Shown piece after piece: positions 4,009 to 57,815 of a stretch of 64,000 nt of DNA. The notes under the pieces are model-generated. The model saw nothing but the letters and a program-made list of their open reading frames with translations, was not told where the DNA came from and did not search any database. Each line of letters opens with the position of its first letter. Position 1 is the first letter of the stretch. This stretch comes from an uncultured Candidatus Saccharibacteria bacterium (GTDB lineage Bacteria; Patescibacteriota; Minisyncoccia; Phycocordibacterales; JAKAEA01), in assembly GCA_964532205.1 (NCBI GenBank), contig CAZHGQ010000001.1, positions 49,962-113,961 of the forward strand, read 5' to 3'. The position numbers and the translations under genes are program-made.

Positions 4009-5559
4009 ATGTCACGTTCAACACTAAATATTCCGGAATCGTACAAGCGCGAAATTAAAATGCGCAAGGAGGTTGCCGAAAAGCAATTAAATTTTATTTA
4101 CGACAAAAAAAGCGACTTCTGGAAAAAAGAACAGGAGCGTCGAATGCTCGATTTGTTTCATACATCTGCAAAAAAAGTTGCTGCCTATAAGGATTTTATA
4201 AAAAAAGCCCGCGTTCATCCTGAGAAAATCCAGTCAATTGAAGATTTTCAGAAAGTTCTACCTGTAAACAAAGATAATTACCTCAGAAGTTATCCTTGGG
4301 AGAAACTTTGTATGCCAGGTTCATTGATTGAGCAATCACTTGTTCTCACTTCAACCTCAGGTTCAACCGGTCGACCATTCTATTTCCCTCGAAATGGTAT
4401 CCTTGATGCTCAATCATCGATTTACCACCAGATGTTCATACGTAATAGCAATCTTGATGTAAATAAATCAACGTTAGTGCTTGTCTGTTTCGGTATGGGT
4501 GTCTGGATCGGTGGCGTGATTACGTATCAGGCTTTCAAAACTATTTCTGAGCGTGGTTATCCATTAACTATTCTGACTCCAGGTGTAAATAAGCGTGAAA
4601 TTTACGAAGCGCTCAAGAATGTTGGTCCACAATATGACCAGATTATTATGTGTGGCTATCCACCATTCATGAAGGATGTTGTTGATGAGGCTAAAGAGAA
4701 TGGTGTAAATTGGAGCGATTTCAATATCCGGATGATTTTCGCTGCTGAATCGTTCTCTGAAAAATTCCGCGACTATATTATGAAGAAAACTGGCATGAAA
4801 AACCCATATCAGGACACGATGAACATTTACGGTAGTGCTGACTTGGGAACGATGGCTGAGGAAACGCCCGTTGCAATCTTAATCCGTCGACTGGCGCTTA
4901 AGCATAAACGAATTTATACAAAGTTATTCGGTCAGGCCACCCGCTTGCCAACATTTGCTCAGTACATTCCAATGTTCATAAACTTTGAGTGTACAAACAA
5001 TCGCGTGTACTGTACTGGTGATAATGTGTTACCACTCGTGCGTTATGAAATCGGTGACAATGGTGGCACCTGGTACTTTAAAGATGTTGAAAAGATCTTC
5101 GAGGAAGAGGGAATTAATCTTCGTGATGAAGCAAAAAATGTTGGCATAGATCATACAATTGCTGAACTACCATTTGTCTACGTCTACGAACGAACAGATC
5201 TCTCGACAAAACTTTACGGTGCTATTATTTATCCTGAGTACGTCAAGGTTGCTTTGCAAGAACATGCTATTGAAAAATACATTACTGGTAAATTTACAAT
5301 GTACACTAAACATGACGAAAGACAGGACGAGTATCTGGAAATTAACGTTGAGTTAAAGCCAGGTATTATTGAGTCATCATGGTTAAAGGAAGAAGTTACG
5401 AAATTAATTTCAGGTTCACTCTCACATCACAGCGCTGAACACAAGAACAATGTTCACATGCTCAATGGCAAAGTCACACCACGCATTGTGTTCTGGCCTC
5501 ATGAGCACCCAACACACTTCCAAACTGGTATTAAGCAAAAGTGGGTGAAGTCAGTTTAA
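4009..5559 (+). CDS. adenylate-forming enzyme, PaaK / coenzyme F390 synthetase / CapK-like (ANL superfamily)
   Basis: 516 aa. N-terminal-third motif LTSTSGSTGRPFYFP resembles the SSGTTGKP phosphate-binding loop of phenylacetate-CoA ligase family proteins. Exact substrate unknown. Confidence 0.55.
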   Translation: MSRSTLNIPESYKREIKMRKEVAEKQLNFIYDKKSDFWKKEQERRMLDLFHTSAKKVAAYKDFIKKARVHPEKIQSIEDFQKVLPVNKDNYLRSYPWEKLCMPGSLIEQSLVLTSTSGSTGRPFYFPRNGILDAQSSIYHQMFIRNSNLDVNKSTLVLVCFGMGVWIGGVITYQAFKTISERGYPLTILTPGVNKREIYEALKNVGPQYDQIIMCGYPPFMKDVVDEAKENGVNWSDFNIRMIFAAESFSEKFRDYIMKKTGMKNPYQDTMNIYGSADLGTMAEETPVAILIRRLALKHKRIYTKLFGQATRLPTFAQYIPMFINFECTNNRVYCTGDNVLPLVRYEIGDNGGTWYFKDVEKIFEEEGINLRDEAKNVGIDHTIAELPFVYVYERTDLSTKLYGAIIYPEYVKVALQEHAIEKYITGKFTMYTKHDERQDEYLEINVELKPGIIESSWLKEEVTKLISGSLSHHSAEHKNNVHMLNGKVTPRIVFWPHEHPTHFQTGIKQKWVKSV

Positions 5560-12999: not shown

Positions 13000-13040
13000 A
13001 GCCCTGATTGTAGTATAATCACTGCAATTAGGGCTTTTTC
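13000..13040 (+). terminator. rho-independent terminator after the Cys-rich peptide ORF
   Basis: AGCCCTGATTG-N14-CAATTAGGGCT (10/11 bp stem) followed by TTTTT. A TATAAT inside the loop may also serve the next gene. Confidence 0.5.
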
Positions 13041-13042
13041 AT

Positions 13043-13651
13043 ATGAAATTCAACTACCACTTCTCAGAAGAGTTGGAACAAGAGCGAGTCGAGTATACCC
13101 GTAGCAAGCTTGATTTTTATACTCAAAATGGCTACCCAGTACACCTGCCACAAACCACGATTGAAGCTGAGTGGTCTGTTGATATATATGAACAGGCCAT
13201 AGCAACTATTTCAACCATCATTGATTCATACAGTCATACATTCCATGCCGGTGCCTTGGCAGCGCACCTTACTCTGTCAGATGAATACAATATTCAACTC
13301 ACACGCTACGGTGTGGGAGGGAGTTACAATCAGCCAAATACGGTTATCATCAATATTTTAAAAAAATCAGGCGAAACCAAAGGCCCACAATCACTTATAG
13401 AAAGTATTTTTCATGAAATAACTCATCTCATCATTGAGATGCAAATTCAAAAATATAATATTTCACACTGGGATAAAGAAATCATTGTTAATCTATTACT
13501 AGCAAAATTGATTCCTGAATTTGCACCTCGTATTGAGCAGAATAAATCTTCCGCTAAAGAACAGATCTGTAATCTTTTTGAAACGTTATATCCGGATGTG
13601 GAGGGGATTATCGCTGGGGTCGGGGAGGGGTATAGAGAAAAGATAAGTTGA
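13043..13651 (+). CDS. hypothetical protein with HExxH motif (possible zinc metallopeptidase)
   Basis: 202 aa with FHEITHLIIEM (HExxH); no other recognisable domain. Confidence 0.45.
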   Translation: MKFNYHFSEELEQERVEYTRSKLDFYTQNGYPVHLPQTTIEAEWSVDIYEQAIATISTIIDSYSHTFHAGALAAHLTLSDEYNIQLTRYGVGGSYNQPNTVIINILKKSGETKGPQSLIESIFHEITHLIIEMQIQKYNISHWDKEIIVNLLLAKLIPEFAPRIEQNKSSAKEQICNLFETLYPDVEGIIAGVGEGYREKIS

Positions 13652-13736: not shown

Positions 13737-14438
13737 ATGAATCCCACACGCATACGTTTGGTTTTGGCTCTGGTATTTGTGTTATGTACCAAAGCCTCGT
13801 ACGGTGGATCGTTCAGCATCCATACGTTTACCACAGAATCGGGCACGGGCCTGGATTCGCGCTTGTCATACACTCACTTGGTGGACACCACCATTGAGGA
13901 AATGACACCAGACAAGCTGGCGACCATCAATGGCGTGCATTTTACCCAGGGCCTTGAGCGCTGCGGTACGAATTACACAGTCAGTGGTCAGGCTGGCGGC
14001 ACGTACAACGCTTACGATGTCAACACTGGCATCTACAAGCTTCTGTACGACTACCTGTTCGATGATGAGAGTCCAACACTGCTCATCAATCTGACGGGTT
14101 TGACGCCCGGCACGGCGTACGACCTGCGCTTGTATAACGGCGGCATCTACCCGTACATCCACAAGAAGTACAAGGTAGAAGTCACTAATGGTGGTATGAC
14201 CGACAGCCTGATCGACTACGATCAATTGGCCTACGGCATGCACTATCTGCAGTACGAGTACACGGCCGAATCTAGCGCATTGGCTATTTCCATTACGCGG
14301 ACTGAGAATGCCAATGCCACTGAGATCAAGTACATGCTGGCCGGTTTCACCAATTCGGTGGTACCAGCGGCGGTTCCGGAGCCAAGCTGTTTGATGTGCG
14401 GCATCGTGATCATGACGATCATGGGTCGAAAACGCTGA
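13737..14438 (+). CDS. secreted protein with C-terminal PEP-CTERM-type sorting signal
   Basis: N-terminal signal peptide MNPTRIRLVLALVFVLCTKASYGG. C-terminus AVPEPSCLMCGIVIMTIMGRKR-stop has a VPEP motif, hydrophobic helix and basic RKR tail. Strong SD AAAAAGGAGGTG. Clearly higher GC than its neighbours. Confidence 0.65.
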   Translation: MNPTRIRLVLALVFVLCTKASYGGSFSIHTFTTESGTGLDSRLSYTHLVDTTIEEMTPDKLATINGVHFTQGLERCGTNYTVSGQAGGTYNAYDVNTGIYKLLYDYLFDDESPTLLINLTGLTPGTAYDLRLYNGGIYPYIHKKYKVEVTNGGMTDSLIDYDQLAYGMHYLQYEYTAESSALAISITRTENANATEIKYMLAGFTNSVVPAAVPEPSCLMCGIVIMTIMGRKR

Positions 14439-14491: not shown

Positions 14492-14516
14492 GTCTGATTT
14501 TTTGTACTATTGCCGT

Positions 14517-15497
14517 ATGTCATCAACTAAGATCATGGTGTCGGGAGTAAAGCCGACTGGCCGACCACACATCGGCAACTATTTCGGCGCAATGCGTCAA
14601 TTTGTTGAATTGGCTAAGAGTCACAAAAGCTACGTCTTTGTGGCCGATTTACATGCTTTGAACACGGTTCAGAATAAGGAGCAGATGCAGCAAAATATTA
14701 TTGACGTGACCTTGGATTACTTGGCTATCGGCCTTGATCCAAAAAATACTGTACTATTCAAACAATCAGACGTACCGGCTCACACTGAACTGACTTGGAT
14801 TTTTAATACCTTAGCAACCATGCCGTACTTGATGCGGGCTCACGCTTTTAAGGATGCTGAGGCTAAAAATAAGGAAATTAATGTTGGCACCTTTGATTAC
14901 CCAATGCTCATGGCTGCCGATATTTTATTGTACAGTCCCGATGTAGTACCTGTCGGCCAAGATCAAAAGCAGCATGTGGAAATTGCTCGCGACATGGCTC
15001 GCAAATTCAATCAAACATACGGCGAGACATTTAAGGAACCAAAAGAATATATTGTCGAGAACGTGAAAGTCGTGCCTGGCACTGACGGTCAGAAAATGTC
15101 AAAGAGTTATAACAACACAATTCCATTATTTGCCACAGACGAAGAAATCAAGAAAGCAGTTATGAGTATCCCGACTGATTCAAAGGGGATTGATGAGTCA
15201 AAAAATCCTGATGAAGACAAAATTTTTGCCCTGCACCAACTTTTTGCTTCAGCTGATGAGGTGGCTGACATTCGGGCTCGTTACGAGAAAGGTGGCTTGG
15301 GCTATAAGGAATCAAAAGAGATTTTGATCAAAAACATCTCAACGTTTATTACGCCAATACGCGAAAAGCGTGAGGCTTTAGCTAAAAATCCTCAGGCAAT
15401 TTTAGATATCCTCAAAGCTGGTGGGGAACAGGCTCGAGCCGTTGCCCAGACCAAATTGGCCGAGGTGCGAGATAAGATTGGTATTGCTCTTTATTAA
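14517..15497 (+). CDS. trpS: tryptophan--tRNA ligase
   Basis: Class I HIGH-like PTGRPHIGNYFGA and KMSKS (KMSKSYNN); about 330 aa. ATG at 14517 preferred over the track's TTG at 14490, which lies inside the terminator. Confidence 0.9.
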   Translation: MSSTKIMVSGVKPTGRPHIGNYFGAMRQFVELAKSHKSYVFVADLHALNTVQNKEQMQQNIIDVTLDYLAIGLDPKNTVLFKQSDVPAHTELTWIFNTLATMPYLMRAHAFKDAEAKNKEINVGTFDYPMLMAADILLYSPDVVPVGQDQKQHVEIARDMARKFNQTYGETFKEPKEYIVENVKVVPGTDGQKMSKSYNNTIPLFATDEEIKKAVMSIPTDSKGIDESKNPDEDKIFALHQLFASADEVADIRARYEKGGLGYKESKEILIKNISTFITPIREKREALAKNPQAILDILKAGGEQARAVAQTKLAEVRDKIGIALY

Positions 15498-15521
15498 GGT
15501 GATCCTTGCAATCACCATGTG

Positions 15522-15552
15522 CCCGGCCACAATTTTGTTGGCCGGGTTTTTT
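15522..15552 (+). terminator. trpS rho-independent terminator
   Basis: CCCGGCCA-N8-TGGCCGGG followed by TTTTTT. Confidence 0.75.
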
Positions 15553-15554
15553 AC

Positions 15555-15724
15555 TTGACAAAATCTAAAAGGGTAGTATCCTATTGTCCAGAACCCTGTA
15601 CAGCTGGTGGCTTTCCCTCGGTGGTCGCCCCCCCCCTCGACTGCCACGCCACCAGCTTTTATTTTGATCCCCACCCCCCCCCTGAGCCCTGACTGTTTTC
15701 CCCGCAGTCAGGGCCTTTTTATTT
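15555..15724 (+). ncRNA. candidate small RNA unit with its own promoter, two terminator-like stem-loops and two C9 homopolymer tracts
   Basis: TTGACA(15555-15560)-16nt-TATCCT promoter-like. SL1 CAGCTGGTGGC...GCCACCAGC + TTTTATTTT with C9 (15628-15636) in its loop. C9 (15674-15682) between the stem-loops. SL2 GCCCTGACTG-N9-CAGTCAGGGC + CTTTTTATTT. No ORF. Confidence 0.3.
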
Positions 15725-15896
15725 GACGAATATATAATTATATTGAGTAACACTTATATCTGTTTGACTCTATACGGAGAAAAGATTACTATAATATCAG
15801 AACAGAGCGAGATTCGGTGATTGGGTTGTCGGGTCTGAGGTTTCTACCTCAGATCCACAACCCAAAACCACCTTATAATGCAAAGTTCTTTCACGA

Positions 15897-15940
15897 GTAC
15901 CCACTAAATTCTTCTGAATTTGTTGGGTACTTTTTTTATT
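15897..15940 (+). terminator. rho-independent terminator closing a second short transcription unit upstream of the T-box leader
   Basis: GTACCCA-N20-TGGGTAC followed by TTTTTTTATTT. Upstream TTGACT(15764)-17nt-TACTATAAT promoter-like element. Confidence 0.5.
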
Positions 15941-15944
15941 TGCA

Positions 15945-16141
15945 AAAAACCCAGTTTGGACTATACTAATGACAAACCATTAAGCCGCCAACAACGGCGA
16001 GGTGAGGAAAGAACACCGCAAGGCTAGTAGACTCCTCCGGCTGGCTCCGTCAAGCTTTAATTAAGATACAACCAGGGTGGCACCGCGACATAAAAATCGC
16101 CCCTGCGGATTTATTAAGTAATAAATTCGGAGGAGCGATTT
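15945..16141 (+). promoter_or_regulatory. T-box riboswitch leader of the asnS/aspS-like gene (5' boundary uncertain)
   Basis: Conserved T-box core AGGGTGGCACCGCG at 16074-16087. Downstream segment AATCGCCCCTGCGGATT can pair with the SD region TCGGAGGAGCGATT (16126-16139), suggesting SD sequestration rather than a strong terminator. Confidence 0.5.
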
Positions 16142-17512
16142 TTGTTTTCTCCGATAGTATCTATGACAAGAATTAACATCAGTGATCTTAAAGATCACAT
16201 CTCTCAGGAAGTTTTGGTTCAAGGCTGGGTAGATATCCGCCGCGACCAGGGTAAAATGGTCTTTTTCGAGTTCCGTGATCGCACCGGTATCATTCAAGGT
16301 GTGGTTTTACCGAATAATAAGGAAGCCTTGGAAATTTCCAAAGAAATCCGTTCAGAGTGGGTTGTGTCAGTTGAAGCTATTGTGAATAAGCGACCGGAGA
16401 AAAATGTACAAGCCGATAAAGCCAATGGTGATATTGAGCTTGAAATCAAAGCAGTTACTGTTTTGAGTAAGGCTAAAGAGTTGCCATTTGAAAAGGATGC
16501 CGAACTCAATCTCGATACCTATCTCGACTCACTGCCATACACCTTGCGTAATCCGAAAAAGCGGGCCATCTTCAACATTCAGGCGGTGATTATGCGTGGC
16601 TACCGGGAATTCCTCAATAGCCAAGGCTTCACCGAGTTCAATGCACCAAAATTGATCGGTGATGACGCAGAGGGTAGTGGTGAAGTCTTTAAAGTGCCAT
16701 ATTTCTATGGTAAAACTGCTCACTTAGCTACCTCGCCACAACTCTATAAACAGATTATGGTCGGCGTCTTTGAACGTGTCTTTGCTATCGGCAACGTCTT
16801 CCGTGCCGAGAAACACTCCACCTCACGCCATATCAATGAATACACTAGCATGGACTTGGAAATGGGTTTCATTGAAAGTCACCACGATATCATGAATATG
16901 GAAACAGAGCTCTTGCGCTATATCACCAATGAATTGCGTCAAGAAGTCTCAGCAGAATTTGCTTTACTTAATGCTGAAATCCCGACAGTACCGGAAAAAA
17001 TTCCATTCATGAAATTGCGAGAGGCTCAGGAATTAATTTACAAAGAAACCGGCAAGGACAAGCGAACTGAACCAGATCTCGAACCTGAAGATGAACGTTG
17101 GCTCTGTGAATGGTCAAAGAAAACTCATAACTCTGACTTTATATTTATCACGCACTATCCGGTTTCAAAGCGGCCAATGTATACCTATGAGGATGAAAAT
17201 GATAAAGGTTTTACCAAAAGTTTTGACTTACTCTTCCGTGGTTTGGAAATCACTACCGGTGGCCAGCGCGTTCATGATTACGACCTCTTAATTGAAAAAA
17301 TTAAGGCCAAGGGTTTGGATCCGGAAAAATTTGCTTTCTATTTACAAGCCTTCAAATATGGCATGCCACCACACGGTGGCTTGGGTATGGGCCTCGAGCG
17401 ACTTACGGCCAAAATGCTCGGGCTTGATAATGTTAAAGAAGCAACATTGTTTCCACGAGATATTAATCGTATTGACTTGTTACTGTCAGATACAACTAAA
17501 GAGGAGAAATAA
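16142..17512 (+). CDS. class IIb aminoacyl-tRNA synthetase, asparaginyl- (or archaeal-type aspartyl-) tRNA synthetase
   Basis: OB-fold N-terminus, motif 2 FRAEKHSTSRHINEYTSMDLEM, motif 3 GMPPHGGLGMGLERL (the GLERL form favours AsnRS). Start TTG 16142 with SD GGAGGAG, or ATG 16163. Confidence 0.85.
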   Translation: MFSPIVSMTRINISDLKDHISQEVLVQGWVDIRRDQGKMVFFEFRDRTGIIQGVVLPNNKEALEISKEIRSEWVVSVEAIVNKRPEKNVQADKANGDIELEIKAVTVLSKAKELPFEKDAELNLDTYLDSLPYTLRNPKKRAIFNIQAVIMRGYREFLNSQGFTEFNAPKLIGDDAEGSGEVFKVPYFYGKTAHLATSPQLYKQIMVGVFERVFAIGNVFRAEKHSTSRHINEYTSMDLEMGFIESHHDIMNMETELLRYITNELRQEVSAEFALLNAEIPTVPEKIPFMKLREAQELIYKETGKDKRTEPDLEPEDERWLCEWSKKTHNSDFIFITHYPVSKRPMYTYEDENDKGFTKSFDLLFRGLEITTGGQRVHDYDLLIEKIKAKGLDPEKFAFYLQAFKYGMPPHGGLGMGLERLTAKMLGLDNVKEATLFPRDINRIDLLLSDTTKEEK

Positions 17513-33129: not shown

Positions 33130-33933
33130 CTCATGAGCCCGCTTCGTTCCGACACACACGAGCCCCCGACCGGGCTCGTTTTTTTTACAGAAAAATCTTT
33201 TTAAACATTTTTTCTTACTGGAAATAAAAATACCCCAACAAGTGTAGGGTCTTCAATTTTTAAGCCGATCAACTGGTCAGGTGGCAGTGGTCAAAGAACC
33301 CAACAAATCATAGGTTTGAGCGGTTTATAGGCAAATATAATTAATAGACAATATTTGAGAAACACACCATTGAGTGGTTGATGGTTAGGTACATATAACT
33401 CATATAAACAACTAACCATAGGCTAGGTAAACCTCGTTGCAGATCATTGCAACTATGTAGAGTCTATACGAACCACATTTACTCAGCTATATGGTTCGTA
33501 AAAGATATATTGTGCGAACTATACTCTAGGGAGTAAGATGGGTCCCCTAAAAGTTATCCACAGGTCACTAATTTTTAAATAATATGTCAAGGATCTGGTT
33601 TTTAAAAAATGTTTGGCAAAATTTATTTATATTATTTTAGAATAATTAATTAGAAAACCAAATTAATTATTCTAATTATTTTGCTAGTGCCTTTGTGTAT
33701 AAAAACTTAACCCCTTCCCTTTTTTTGGCCTGGGGGGTGGGGTTGTGATGCAACCGATATATCTTTAATGATATAGTGACCCCTTTTACAAAAAGCTGTG
33801 ATGCGATCTTTATCTCGAATTACATATTGCAGCCATTTTAAGCATCCGAGTATAAAGATACAAAACGTTGAGATTATAAAACTCGCTGTTATATCAACCT
33901 TGATATATAACTCGTGATATACAACTATGAATA

Positions 33934-35031
33934 TTATTTGAGCGTTTTAGTAACGAGATTAGGAGTTGTTGAGGCAGTCACAACGGTAAACTGAACACGG
34001 CCAATCTTTTGACCATTTAACGTCTCAACATCAACGCGCCATTTGCCCGGCATTAAACTAGCTTTCTGCGAATAGGTACGGTACCCTTCACCACGACCAC
34101 CAAATATTGGCAGCTTAACCGTATTTTGTGTAACCCAATGTTTTGTTTGTTCATTGTAACGCTGCCAACTATGAACAATGGTTGTATTTAAACTTGTCGG
34201 TGAGAATACTGCGCTGTACACATATGCCGTCTCGCCTGGAACAGCTTGAAATGTTTTAGAAAAAGAAAAATACTCAAGAAAGGCATTGCGTGGCTCGGTC
34301 GTGACTTCATATTCACCGTCATGATTGCGTACAACAGCGTGATAAACCCCAGCATCTTTTAGCGATAAAGGTAGTGGTGGAATAAGGTTGGTAAAGTACA
34401 AAGTGTTAATGATCGCCGTAATGAAAATAATACTTACAAAGATACCAATTCTACTTTGGTTATATTGTTGAGTATTAAAATATCGCAACGATGACACAAA
34501 GAACGCTATTGATATCAAACTCACGATACCAGCTAGAATAAATGAAAAGACACCAATTGAGTGCACCACGATTGGCACAATAAAAATGAAGAAGGCATAG
34601 ATCGACAAGAACAGCATGCCGATTTGAAATGTTAAGCGAGAGTAGCGATGCTTGAGTAATTCATTGGCCGTAAAAGCTAGACATAGTAAAAGCAAAAATG
34701 GCCAGCTAGCCGAAAGTGTGGCACTACGGAAATAAAAGACCAGCACAGCACTCAACAAACCACCGAATGCAAACTGGATAGCAATAATCAACCAGAAGTG
34801 CATCTTGCTATAGTGTCGACTATTCTTTTTGGTGGCCTCCACGTAATTAATAAGCAGCATGGCCACAGCAGCAATCAATAAGTGACCGCCAACCCAAACA
34901 TTCTCCCAGAGTTTATCGACTCGCTCCAAAGCAATAAAATCAAAAATGAAACCGCCAACTAGCGACAATGAGGAGATTAATCGCTCATTGCGTAAATAAA
35001 AATCTTTAACTGGTTGAATAATTCGTCTCAT
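33934..35031 (-). CDS. hypothetical membrane protein (multi-TM N-terminus, extracytoplasmic C-terminal domain)
   Basis: 365 aa, about 8 TM helices then a soluble domain. Confidence 0.5.
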   Translation of the reverse strand: MRRIIQPVKDFYLRNERLISSLSLVGGFIFDFIALERVDKLWENVWVGGHLLIAAVAMLLINYVEATKKNSRHYSKMHFWLIIAIQFAFGGLLSAVLVFYFRSATLSASWPFLLLLCLAFTANELLKHRYSRLTFQIGMLFLSIYAFFIFIVPIVVHSIGVFSFILAGIVSLISIAFFVSSLRYFNTQQYNQSRIGIFVSIIFITAIINTLYFTNLIPPLPLSLKDAGVYHAVVRNHDGEYEVTTEPRNAFLEYFSFSKTFQAVPGETAYVYSAVFSPTSLNTTIVHSWQRYNEQTKHWVTQNTVKLPIFGGRGEGYRTYSQKASLMPGKWRVDVETLNGQKIGRVQFTVVTASTTPNLVTKTLK

Positions 35032-42346: not shown

Positions 42347-42559
42347 CTACTTTTTCTTCTCGGATTTGTTCTCCGAGTATTCAGTCGCTTCGCCACAGGG
42401 GTTTATGATCGTGGCAATGATGGCATCAAACCAGCTAAAGACCGCGATCACAGGTGCAAATGGCGACAGAACGATCTGTTCGCCATTCTCTTCATGATGA
42501 GCTGCAGACGGATGGGCAGCTGAACCATCGATGGCCACATGGGCCAATTGCTTGAACAT
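42347..42559 (-). CDS. small hypothetical protein (GC-rich)
   Basis: 70 aa; strong SD (AAGGAG 6 nt before ATG) and a downstream hairpin terminator (42303-42340). Confidence 0.45.
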   Translation of the reverse strand: MFKQLAHVAIDGSAAHPSAAHHEENGEQIVLSPFAPVIAVFSWFDAIIATIINPCGEATEYSENKSEKKK

Positions 42560-42683
42560 ACAGACTCCTTACGTAAGGGTTCTGAGACTATCTAACCACC
42601 TACGCAATCGCTGTCACTTGTCGACACCTAGCGAATTAGTATTTCCCCCACCCGGCAAATTGGTGTAAAGGCAGTCCGAAACA

Positions 42684-57743: not shown

Positions 57744-57815
57744 TGACCTCACGGGGAATCGAACCCCGGTTTAAAGCTTGAGAAGCTTTCGTCCTAGCCG
57801 CTAGACGATGAGGCC
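57744..57815 (-). tRNA. tRNA-Glu (anticodon CUC), CCA not encoded
   Basis: Minus-strand cloverleaf: acceptor GGCCTCA/TGAGGTC, D-arm GTCT-AGCGGCTA-GGAC, anticodon stem AAAGC/GCTTT with loop TTCTCAA, T-arm CGGGG-TTCGATT-CCCCG, discriminator A then CCG. Confidence 0.75.

Follow-up and report, generated by a model that had tools for sequence, protein, structure and literature searches.

The pairing of a C-rich loop with a G-rich mRNA site is a mode of regulation known in Actinobacteria, Firmicutes, Xanthomonas, and Helicobacter. The reduced genomes of Patescibacteria (candidate phyla radiation) are usually regarded as poor in regulators, and our literature searches did not turn up any regulatory RNA of this kind described for the group. 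The actinobacterial 6C RNA (B11/6C in M. tuberculosis) is a small, independently transcribed RNA, the most conserved parts of which are its two loops with at least six C; mutational and compensatory experiments showed its C-rich motifs to pair with G-rich stretches of mRNA at the RBS or in the 5′ UTR, and these interactions appear to be chaperone-independent (PMC6486639). In the case of sX13 from Xanthomonadaceae (RF02232), an RNA of ~115 nt contains an unstructured 5′ end and stable stem-loops with 4C/5C motifs, three loops in all, and represses mRNAs that have G-rich motifs near their starts. Regulation depends on the C-rich as well as the G-rich motifs but was not rescued by compensatory mutations, and Hfq-independence is the authors' assumption (PMC3771888). 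RoxS/RsaE of the Bacillales ends in an intrinsic terminator preceded by several unpaired C-rich regions, one of which separates two hairpins, and is unusually widely conserved for a trans-acting sRNA (PMC5419742, PMC8216469); the pairing of the RoxS C-rich motifs with G-rich mRNA sites was likewise shown by mutational and compensatory experiments (PMC5419742). The mraW motif (RF01746) of Actinomycetales is a cis element located upstream of mraW genes (mraW/rsmH) (PMC2864571).

The window, i.e., the whole 64-kb stretch of DNA analysed here, contains at positions 15555–15724 a unit consisting of a sigma-70-like promoter, a hairpin with C9 in its loop (SL1), and a U tract; the unpaired linker GAUCCCCAC9UGA then leads to a terminator hairpin (SL2) with the loop UUUUCCCCG (Table 1). 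The promoter, the stem-loops, and the two C9 tracts that the original prediction had claimed were all found.

Table 1. Positions of the unit and its neighbouring features in the window.
Feature	Position	Strand	Remarks
trpS	14517–15497		Stop codon ends at 15497
trpS intrinsic terminator, GCCCGGCC...GGCCGGG + U6	15521–15553	+	Fold z = −4.7; upstream of the unit
Sigma-70-like promoter, TTGACA-16-TATCCT	15555–15582	+	10/12 consensus positions; −35 at 15555–15560, −10 at 15577–15582
SL1	15602–15657	+	Outer stem 15602–15611/15648–15657; inner stem 15620–15627/15638–15645; apical loop 15628–15637
First C9 tract (C-rich motif 1)	15628–15636	+	In the SL1 apical loop
U-rich tract, UUUUAUUUU	15658–15665	+	Directly 3′ of SL1; identical in L081, U7 in L083
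Unpaired linker, GAUCCCCA-C9-UGA = GAUCCCCACCCCCCCCCUGA (C-rich motif 2)	15666–15685	+	20 nt; unpaired in MFE and centroid folds
SL2 terminator hairpin	15686–15714	+	Arms 15686–15695/15705–15714; stem of 10–11 bp; loop UUUUCCCCG at 15696–15704
CCCC in the SL2 loop (C-rich motif 3)	15700–15703	+
Terminator U tail, UUUUUAUUU	15716–15724	+	After one C past SL2; predicted 3′ end of the ~135-nt RNA; U-run in all homologues
Unit 2, promoter to terminator	15764–15938		z = −9.6
Promoter and short T-box leader before aspS	15971–16107		35.5 bits vs Rfam gathering threshold of 93 (sub-threshold)

The trpS terminator, which is 93% identical in the close relative L081, separates trpS from the unit, and the promoter-like site begins one base past it. 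The transcription start is predicted at ~15589–15591. The outer stem of SL1 (AGCUGGUGGC/GCCACCAGCU) has 10 bp and the inner stem 8 bp, closing the apical loop CCCCCCCCCU. Together with the UUUUAUUUU tract, SL1 also fits the pattern of an intrinsic terminator, except for its long loop, and the tract could act either as an internal terminator, yielding a short isoform of ~70 nt, or as a protein-binding site. The linker holds CCCC at 15669–15672 and the second C9 run at 15674–15682 and is the best-conserved single-stranded segment of the unit. The terminator scan called SL2, a GC-rich hairpin with a U tract on its 3′ side, as an intrinsic terminator. Motifs of the UCCC(C) type occur unpaired as AUCCCC at 15667–15672 and as UUCCCC in the SL2 loop. 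The fold of the unit has an MFE of −48.9 kcal/mol with z = −6.3 to −6.5, and none of the 200 shuffles was as stable.

The tracts C9, C4, C9, and C4 all fall inside 76 nt, and apart from the two C9 runs no run of C or G in the 64-kb window exceeds 6 nt; the longest G run is 6. The spectrum of C runs in the window comprises 63 of length 4, 12 of length 5, none of lengths 6–8, and 2 of length 9. Runs of C8 or longer are confined to the unit (expected 0.48; none of 100 dinucleotide shuffles matched the observed count). For runs of at least nine C, the i.i.d. expectation at the window GC of ~0.42 is 0.045, in agreement with the initial remark that C9 is improbable at ~42% GC.

The resemblance of the unit to the known RNAs is one of design. 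Like 6C, it is proposed to be a small, independently transcribed RNA; however, its best-conserved C motif is the single-stranded linker rather than a loop, and as against the two loops of 6C with at least six conserved C, only the SL1 loop reaches this length, in two lineages, while the SL2 loop contains C4. The two RNAs also come from different phyla and show no covariance-model match. Compared with sX13 and its three loops, the unit has two stem-loops and a linker, and scores 11 bits against a gathering threshold of 50; no enrichment of G-rich motifs near starts was detected in the 64 kb. RoxS/RsaE shares with the unit the unpaired C-rich regions, one of which lies between two hairpins, and the intrinsic terminator behind them, but is from a different phylum and has no sequence similarity beyond C-richness; the UCCCC-type motifs in common are a resemblance of design and not homology. 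SL2 matches positions 38–66 of the mraW motif model, with the stem GCCCUG...CAGGGC and the core UUCCCC of the loop in common (21 bits and E = 0.02 when 146 nt were searched). Only 29 of the 107 model positions are covered, the score is below the gathering threshold of 50, and the resemblance may be chance; the unit has trpS and aspS as neighbours and no mraW gene beside it.

With Rfam over the whole window at gathering thresholds, we found only one tRNA (57744–57815). On the element itself, the matches were partial and sub-threshold, namely mraW (21 bits vs 50), sar (18 bits), and sX13 (11 bits vs 50, E = 4.9), and the 6C and RsaE/RoxS models gave no match at E up to 10 in searches with 146 nt and 1.1 kb. 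Because no Rfam family matches, the unit represents a new family by these tests, and it is not a member of the RsaE-type family, whose UCCC motifs the original prediction had cited.

The spacer between trpS and aspS (16163–17512, archaeal-type, non-discriminating) is 644 nt long. No record was found when the exact trpS and aspS protein sequences were looked up. The nearest trpS among the GTDB species representatives is 66–67% identical, and the top matches are all MAGs of Patescibacteria (Paceibacteria, Zambryskibacteria, Nomurabacteria, and similar groups), which places the window in a Paceibacteria-like Patescibacterium distant from any reference genome. We found no copy of the module, i.e., the linker and SL2, in 80 trpS loci of GTDB species representatives with 56–67% identity; a weak covariance-model match in one locus (L015, 21 bits) was rejected as an ordinary gene terminator. 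A trpS protein search returned one near relative (P0007, 95% identity) and many others at 78% or less. The unit is present in the same position between trpS and aspS in L081 and L082, two ENA assemblies with 95% amino acid identity in trpS, and in L083–L088, six Logan assemblies with 76%.

L081 and L082 carry the whole spacer, and the promoter there is TTGACA-16-TATTAT, with 11 of the 12 consensus positions. L081 agrees with the window in the outer stem of SL1 and in the U tract; its inner stem differs in sequence but has complementary arms that still pair, its loop contains C6, its linker is GAUCCCUACCCCCCUGA, and its SL2 differs by one G–U change. In L083–L088, a related long hairpin stands straight after the trpS stop codon and is followed by U7, an unpaired GAUCCCCACCCCCCCUG, and a terminator with the loop UUUCCCCG. 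In L083, the scan gave no promoter above its threshold and trpS lacks a terminator of its own; hence, the RNA there could be a product of the trpS 3′ UTR.

An exact-pattern scan of metagenomes gave four matches, one of which is a true homologue of the 3′ module (L091). The other three (L092–L094) are chance matches in high-GC coding DNA, with neither hairpin nor U-run nor additional identities. L091 shows TTGACC-17-AATACT, ~30 nt without a strong hairpin, and then GAUCCCUACCCCCCCUGAGCCCCGGCUGUCUUCCCCGCAGUCGGGGC and a U-run, on a contig without trpS; the promoter-like site lies at the same relative distance as the promoter in the window. The identity exceeds the 23 bases of the search pattern and includes UGAGCCC, CUGUCUU, the full 10-bp stem, the U tail, and the promoter-like site. 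The neighbouring pheS is 70–76% identical to proteins named Tepidisphaeraceae or Phycisphaerae, because of which we assign the contig to a Planctomycete.

The unit is absent from L089, L096, L098, L100, and L102, in which trpS is ~73–77% identical, synteny is kept, and the spacers measure 18–830 nt; these relatives end trpS in other ways. Missing in relatives with ~75% trpS identity, the unit is dispensable and patchily distributed. BLAST against plasmids and phages and a pattern scan of viral sequences gave no match to the unit. Of the 59 matches that a less strict 15-mer search brought up in viral contigs, none has the module (25 bits or less), and ~20 come from a single unrelated family of prophage-like contigs with high GC. 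We also built a covariance model (R1) on the module. Its four training loci score 79–90 bits, and elsewhere R1 gave 25 bits or less, namely in the window (filters off), in 92 loci of Patescibacteria and others, in the 59 viral loci, and in L102. The weak matches within the window include a terminator at 13000–13045 (18 bits) and the trpS terminator (13 bits).

The module is 94% identical to that of the window in L081 (ungapped positions), 83% in L083, and 82% in L091. At the four-fold degenerate sites of trpS, the identity to the window is 70% in L081 (n = 101) and 40% in L083 (n = 96), the latter being close to saturation. The 3′ arm of SL1 and the U tract are 100% identical between the window and L081. 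GAUCCCYA with at least six C and the loop UUCCCCG are invariant in all four lineages, and much of the module conservation falls on nucleotides that are unpaired in the predicted folds. The position of the module far above the four-fold sites indicates that purifying selection acts on the unpaired nucleotides as well as on the stems. The SL1 interior (36%) and unit 2 (33–51%) lie below the four-fold value of 70% between the window and L081, with the surrounding promoters, terminators, and T-box at 93–100%; allelic replacement, template-switch mutation in the hairpins, and diversifying selection are possible causes of this excess divergence.

The C tracts in the SL1 loop and the linker have lengths of 9/9 in the window, 6/6 in L081, 4/7 in L083, and none/7 in L091, so that the length of nine is not what is conserved. 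The run in the SL1 loop, on which the original prediction laid its emphasis, is the least conserved motif (in L083 it is only CCCC and partly paired), whereas the linker and the SL2 loop are conserved. The length of the C tracts is free of constraint. Within each lineage, it is identical among the independent assemblies (two and six) and differs only between lineages, which does not support slipped-strand switching.

A covariation check with Infernal/Rfam and relatives had been proposed at the outset. The pairing of SL2 is kept in all 40 cells of the four sequences, and three of the ten pairs are changed on both sides with compensation, compared with 30–55% paired cells in slid controls; however, 16 of 500 shuffles reach the observed value, and with only four independent sequences the covariation is suggestive rather than conclusive. 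The statement that the unit has no ORF needs correction: it is overlapped by mechanically called frames of 57 and 39 aa (plus strand) and of 90 and 62 aa (minus strand), but a six-frame comparison of the four homologues found no shared frame, start, or stop, and no SD. Taken together, the conservation of the module, the pairing of SL2, and the lack of a shared frame indicate a non-coding element constrained at the RNA level, the single-stranded C-rich parts included.

The unit is a conserved ncRNA gene that exposes C-rich motifs and had not been catalogued before; it adds a member to a known kind and is not a new kind. That it is a functional ncRNA gene we hold to be highly probable, and the call of a candidate small RNA with exposed C-rich motifs held up, since the unit and its unpaired motifs recur in relatives and no ORF is conserved. 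To the fuller reading, an independent ncRNA gene of ~135 nt acting through C-rich motifs in the manner of 6C, sX13, and RoxS/RsaE, we give a probability of roughly 0.5. The RNA would be read rightwards from its own sigma-70-type promoter and would end at the intrinsic terminator, with a shorter form of ~70 nt possibly ending at the U tract past SL1. It would display three unpaired C-rich motifs, namely the C9 of the SL1 apical loop, the linker GAUCCCCAC9UGA, and the terminator loop UUUUCCCCG. These motifs may pair with G-rich stretches at or near the RBS or in the 5′ UTRs of mRNAs, and the short G–C-rich duplexes, for which no chaperone would be needed, may alter translation or mRNA stability. 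Because the design is shared with 6C, sX13, and RoxS/RsaE, we take trans-acting base-pairing as the most likely mechanism, although the odds that C-rich seeds act by pairing are only even; transcription itself, both ends of the RNA, the trans action, the targets, and the direction of regulation are inferred. If true, a conserved C-rich-seed sRNA would extend this mode of regulation to Patescibacteria, most of which cannot yet be manipulated genetically, and would provide a definite regulator open to testing there.

The window contains candidate partners of the RNA. With CCCCACC, seven contiguous pairs could be formed by AAGGAGGUGGGGCAUG, the RBS belonging to the gene at 13737, and GGGUGGGGG lies in the 5′ UTR of a 70-aa ORF (42347–42559, minus strand). 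The 7-mer GGTGGGG is found 10 times in the window against 3.5 expected, an excess that may equally reflect Gly-Gly codons, since the shuffles ignore codons. None of the best duplexes predicted for the window lies at a start codon, and GGGG is not enriched between −35 and +15 of the starts (6 of 72 crude gene calls vs a background of 6%). Most genes in the window have no SD or look leaderless, so that a general anti-SD role would touch few of them; a small regulon of specific targets is more plausible than blanket anti-SD action, which is unlikely. The top match of the target scan, the complement of a second copy of the 11-mer CCCCACCCCCC at 33.7 kb, was rejected, its strand having no predicted promoter. 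That copy (33732–33742, minus strand) lies ~190 nt downstream of a DUF2914 gene, before a U-run in a gene-free gap; as a paralogue of the unit it was rejected by the covariance model, and its local hairpin is not significant.

The lack of enrichment at starts would also suit an RNA that binds protein or acts as a decoy, in which the C-rich motifs are recognised by an RBP (e.g., a poly(C) binder of the KH type) or imitate the C-rich tail at the 3′ end of 16S rRNA, so that the RNA titrates a factor instead of pairing with mRNAs. The exact unpaired sequences, GAUCCCYACCCCCC and UUCCCCG, are the most conserved parts in two phyla, which suits contact with a protein or the ribosome as well as it suits a seed, and GAUC..ACC..CC may be loosely like the GAUCACCUCC end of 16S rRNA. 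Against this stand the failure of any candidate protein to emerge and the multiple C tracts of variable length (C6–C9), which are typical of the pairing seeds in 6C, sX13, and RoxS. We consider titration unlikely overall, although nothing in the present evidence distinguishes a decoy from base-pairing.

A near-identical module in a Planctomycete is the one surprising element of this locus. With 82% identity, the copies of a Patescibacterium and of a Planctomycete (Tepidisphaeraceae) are as alike as those of two Patescibacteria with saturated synonymous sites, and this raises the question of horizontal spread of sRNA genes. The linker–SL2 module (~60 nt, GAUCCCYA-Cn-UGAGCCC-hairpin(UUCCCCG)) might conceivably be a horizontally shared or mobile regulatory RNA module, or the tip of a widespread, uncatalogued, cross-phylum family of C-rich sRNAs, a speculation that we rate as improbable. 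If the lineage is epibiotic, the module may have been exchanged with a host, or could even be an RNA acting on G-rich mRNA sites of the partner.

The two hairpins of the unit could instead be a cis-acting terminator or insulator, with SL1 and SL2 serving as tandem back-up terminators of trpS, the C tracts incidental or an aid to termination, and no functional RNA being produced. U tracts follow both hairpins, the unit of L083 starts right after the trpS stop without a separate terminator or a promoter that passes the scan, and R1 weakly matches the two other terminators named above. In the window and L081, however, trpS has a strong terminator of its own with a near-consensus promoter next to it, L091 has the module and a promoter-like site but no trpS, the conservation of the unpaired linker and loop greatly exceeds that of four-fold sites, which is more than a terminator needs, and relatives without the unit terminate trpS differently. 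The back-up terminator reading fails on the trpS terminator, the promoter, the conserved unpaired motifs, and the trpS-free contig, and we regard it as decidedly improbable. It was also the outcome that the original prediction had set against itself, with C tracts unconserved in relatives; the motifs do recur, also in the contig without trpS.

An element acting at the DNA level, such as an i-motif/G-quadruplex formed by the four C tracts (G tracts in the complementary strand), a slipped-strand switch, or the remnant or cargo of a mobile element, the last of which would explain the occurrence in two phyla, accords with the clustered C tracts, with their lengths of 9, 6, and 7 between lineages, and with the patchy, cross-phylum distribution. 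It is nevertheless very improbable, given the same trpS–aspS synteny in three lineages, the equal tract lengths among the independent assemblies of each lineage, and the compensatory stem changes, which point to constraint at the RNA level; moreover, no flanking repeats and no integrase or transposase genes were seen, and the plasmid, phage, and viral searches gave no match. Least probable of all is that the unit encodes a small proline-rich protein (the two plus-strand ORFs contain PPP, but their frames, starts, and stops are not conserved and no SD precedes them) or is a cis leader of the downstream unit or aspS, since, although it lies upstream of another transcription unit and a T-box leader, a terminator closes it, each of the following units starts from a promoter of its own, the unit and the T-box occur apart (the former alone in L083, the latter alone in L100), and a convergent gene lies downstream in L091.

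Three successive promoter-led elements are held in the spacer, namely the unit, unit 2, and the T-box leader with its promoter. Some ideas about the relations among them were rejected. In a sponge pairing between the unit and unit 2, the cognate duplexes were no better than cross-genome or shuffled ones, and pairing of the linker CCACCC with GGGUGG of the T-box amounts to only 6 bp with no co-occurrence (the unit without a T-box in L083 and the reverse in L100). A tRNA-like or att-site origin of UUUGAUCCCC... was also rejected, as the T-loop and T-stem do not fit. The spacer is an apparent small island of RNA genes and leaders, which is useful for the annotation of such genomes. Unit 2 consists of a long near-perfect hairpin closed by a bulged helix and has its own terminator and no Rfam match; the same architecture, with a very different sequence, is also found in L081, L083, and L089 and twice in L102.

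A second promoter-to-terminator unit (unit 2) adjoins the C-rich unit. Its RNA of ~140 nt is predicted to fold into a bulged helix closing a long, near-perfect hairpin (MFE -65.6, z = -9.6) and has its own terminator; against Rfam, unit 2 gave no match. The architecture is kept in several relatives, although the sequence is almost wholly different. Counterparts were located in L081 and L083, two relatives that carry the C-rich unit (trpS 95% and 76% identical, respectively), and in L089 and L102, two relatives that keep the trpS-aspS synteny without the C-rich unit, the latter having two copies.

Comparison of the window with L081 shows 36% identity in the SL1 interior of the C-rich unit and 33-51% identity in unit 2, both lower than the 70% identity of the four-fold degenerate sites of trpS. 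The promoters, terminators and T-box flanking these two segments are 93-100% identical. Judged by sequence comparison, the SL1 interior and unit 2 are hypervariable hairpins, forming a mosaic within a conserved scaffold.

Coordinates of the features described in the window, its relatives and the viral contigs
Feature	Location	Position	Strand
Segments diverged from L081	window	15583-15647 and 15796-15938	
Unit 2	window	15764-15938	+
Unit 2 counterpart	L081	1232-1400	
Unit 2 counterpart	L083	4173-4356	
Unit 2 counterpart	L089	~4060-4250	
Unit 2 counterparts (two)	L102	3260-3480 and 3524-3725	
Promoter and T-box leader	window	15939-16135	+
trpS start region	window	14495-14520	
Region of the second CCCCACCCCCC copy	window	33700-33745	-
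Gene-free gap	window	33130-33933	
DUF2914 membrane-protein gene	window	33934-35031	-
C8 element	L010	1062-1115	
UUUCCCCCACCCGG site	window	42643-42657	+
70-aa ORF	window	42347-42559	-
Leader-like arrangement	L103, L106, L108, L114, L118-L120, L124, L126, L130-L132, L137-L140, L143, L146, L151, L157, L158		

A promoter followed by a short T-box leader lies upstream of aspS, which encodes the archaeal-type, non-discriminating enzyme. The leader, whose Stem I is compact, also has the AGGGUGGCACCGCG box and a terminator, and it scores 35.5 bits against an Rfam gathering score of 93. The region is 98% identical to that of L081, and similar leaders are also present in L100, another synteny-keeping relative, and in L010, a locus of a Paceibacterota MAG. 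At the start of trpS, the ATG is situated 7 nt downstream of a TACTAT -10-like box, and relatives are alike in this respect; a recognisable SD is absent from most genes of the window. The sequence features of these starts suggest that leaderless or SD-independent initiation is widespread in the source lineage.

The linker 11-mer CCCCACCCCCC occurs a second time in the window, within a gene-free gap; the gene for a DUF2914 membrane protein lies ~190 nt upstream of this copy. AGGCC comes next after the 11-mer, then an A-run, then GGGAAGGGGUU and finally a U-run. The complement of this copy is the only G6 run of the window. The hairpin at this site has no significant fold, and the covariance model, built on the linker and SL2, ruled the site out as a paralogue of the C-rich unit. 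In L010 (trpS 64% identical), a C8 tract begins immediately 3' of the trpS stop codon; next come CCUCUCCCC and a hairpin of 13 bp that lacks a U-run (z = -4.9). The covariance model did not detect this element, which may have no relation to the C-rich unit or may be a strongly diverged C-rich element in the same genomic position.

A conserved non-coding arrangement recurs in about 20 high-GC IMG/VR contigs of viruses or prophages: GGGGGGCGGTGA is followed after ~35 nt by TGATCCCCACCCCCC, and a gene starts 20-30 nt further on. Partial complementarity exists between its G-rich and C-rich arms, and the arrangement, which looks like a conserved structured leader, has no relation to the C-rich unit.

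Among the G-rich sites of the window, GGGUGGGGG, the minus-strand complement of UUUCCCCCACCCGG, is located in the 5' UTR of a 70-aa ORF, whose AAGGAG SD follows ~95 nt downstream, and is a possible pairing partner for the C-rich linker. The 7-mer GGTGGGG has 10 sites on the two strands together versus 3.5 expected from dinucleotide shuffles, which do not control for codon effects (0/100 shuffles reach 10); these sites include the end of trpS (15420) and the ribosome-binding site for the gene at 13737.
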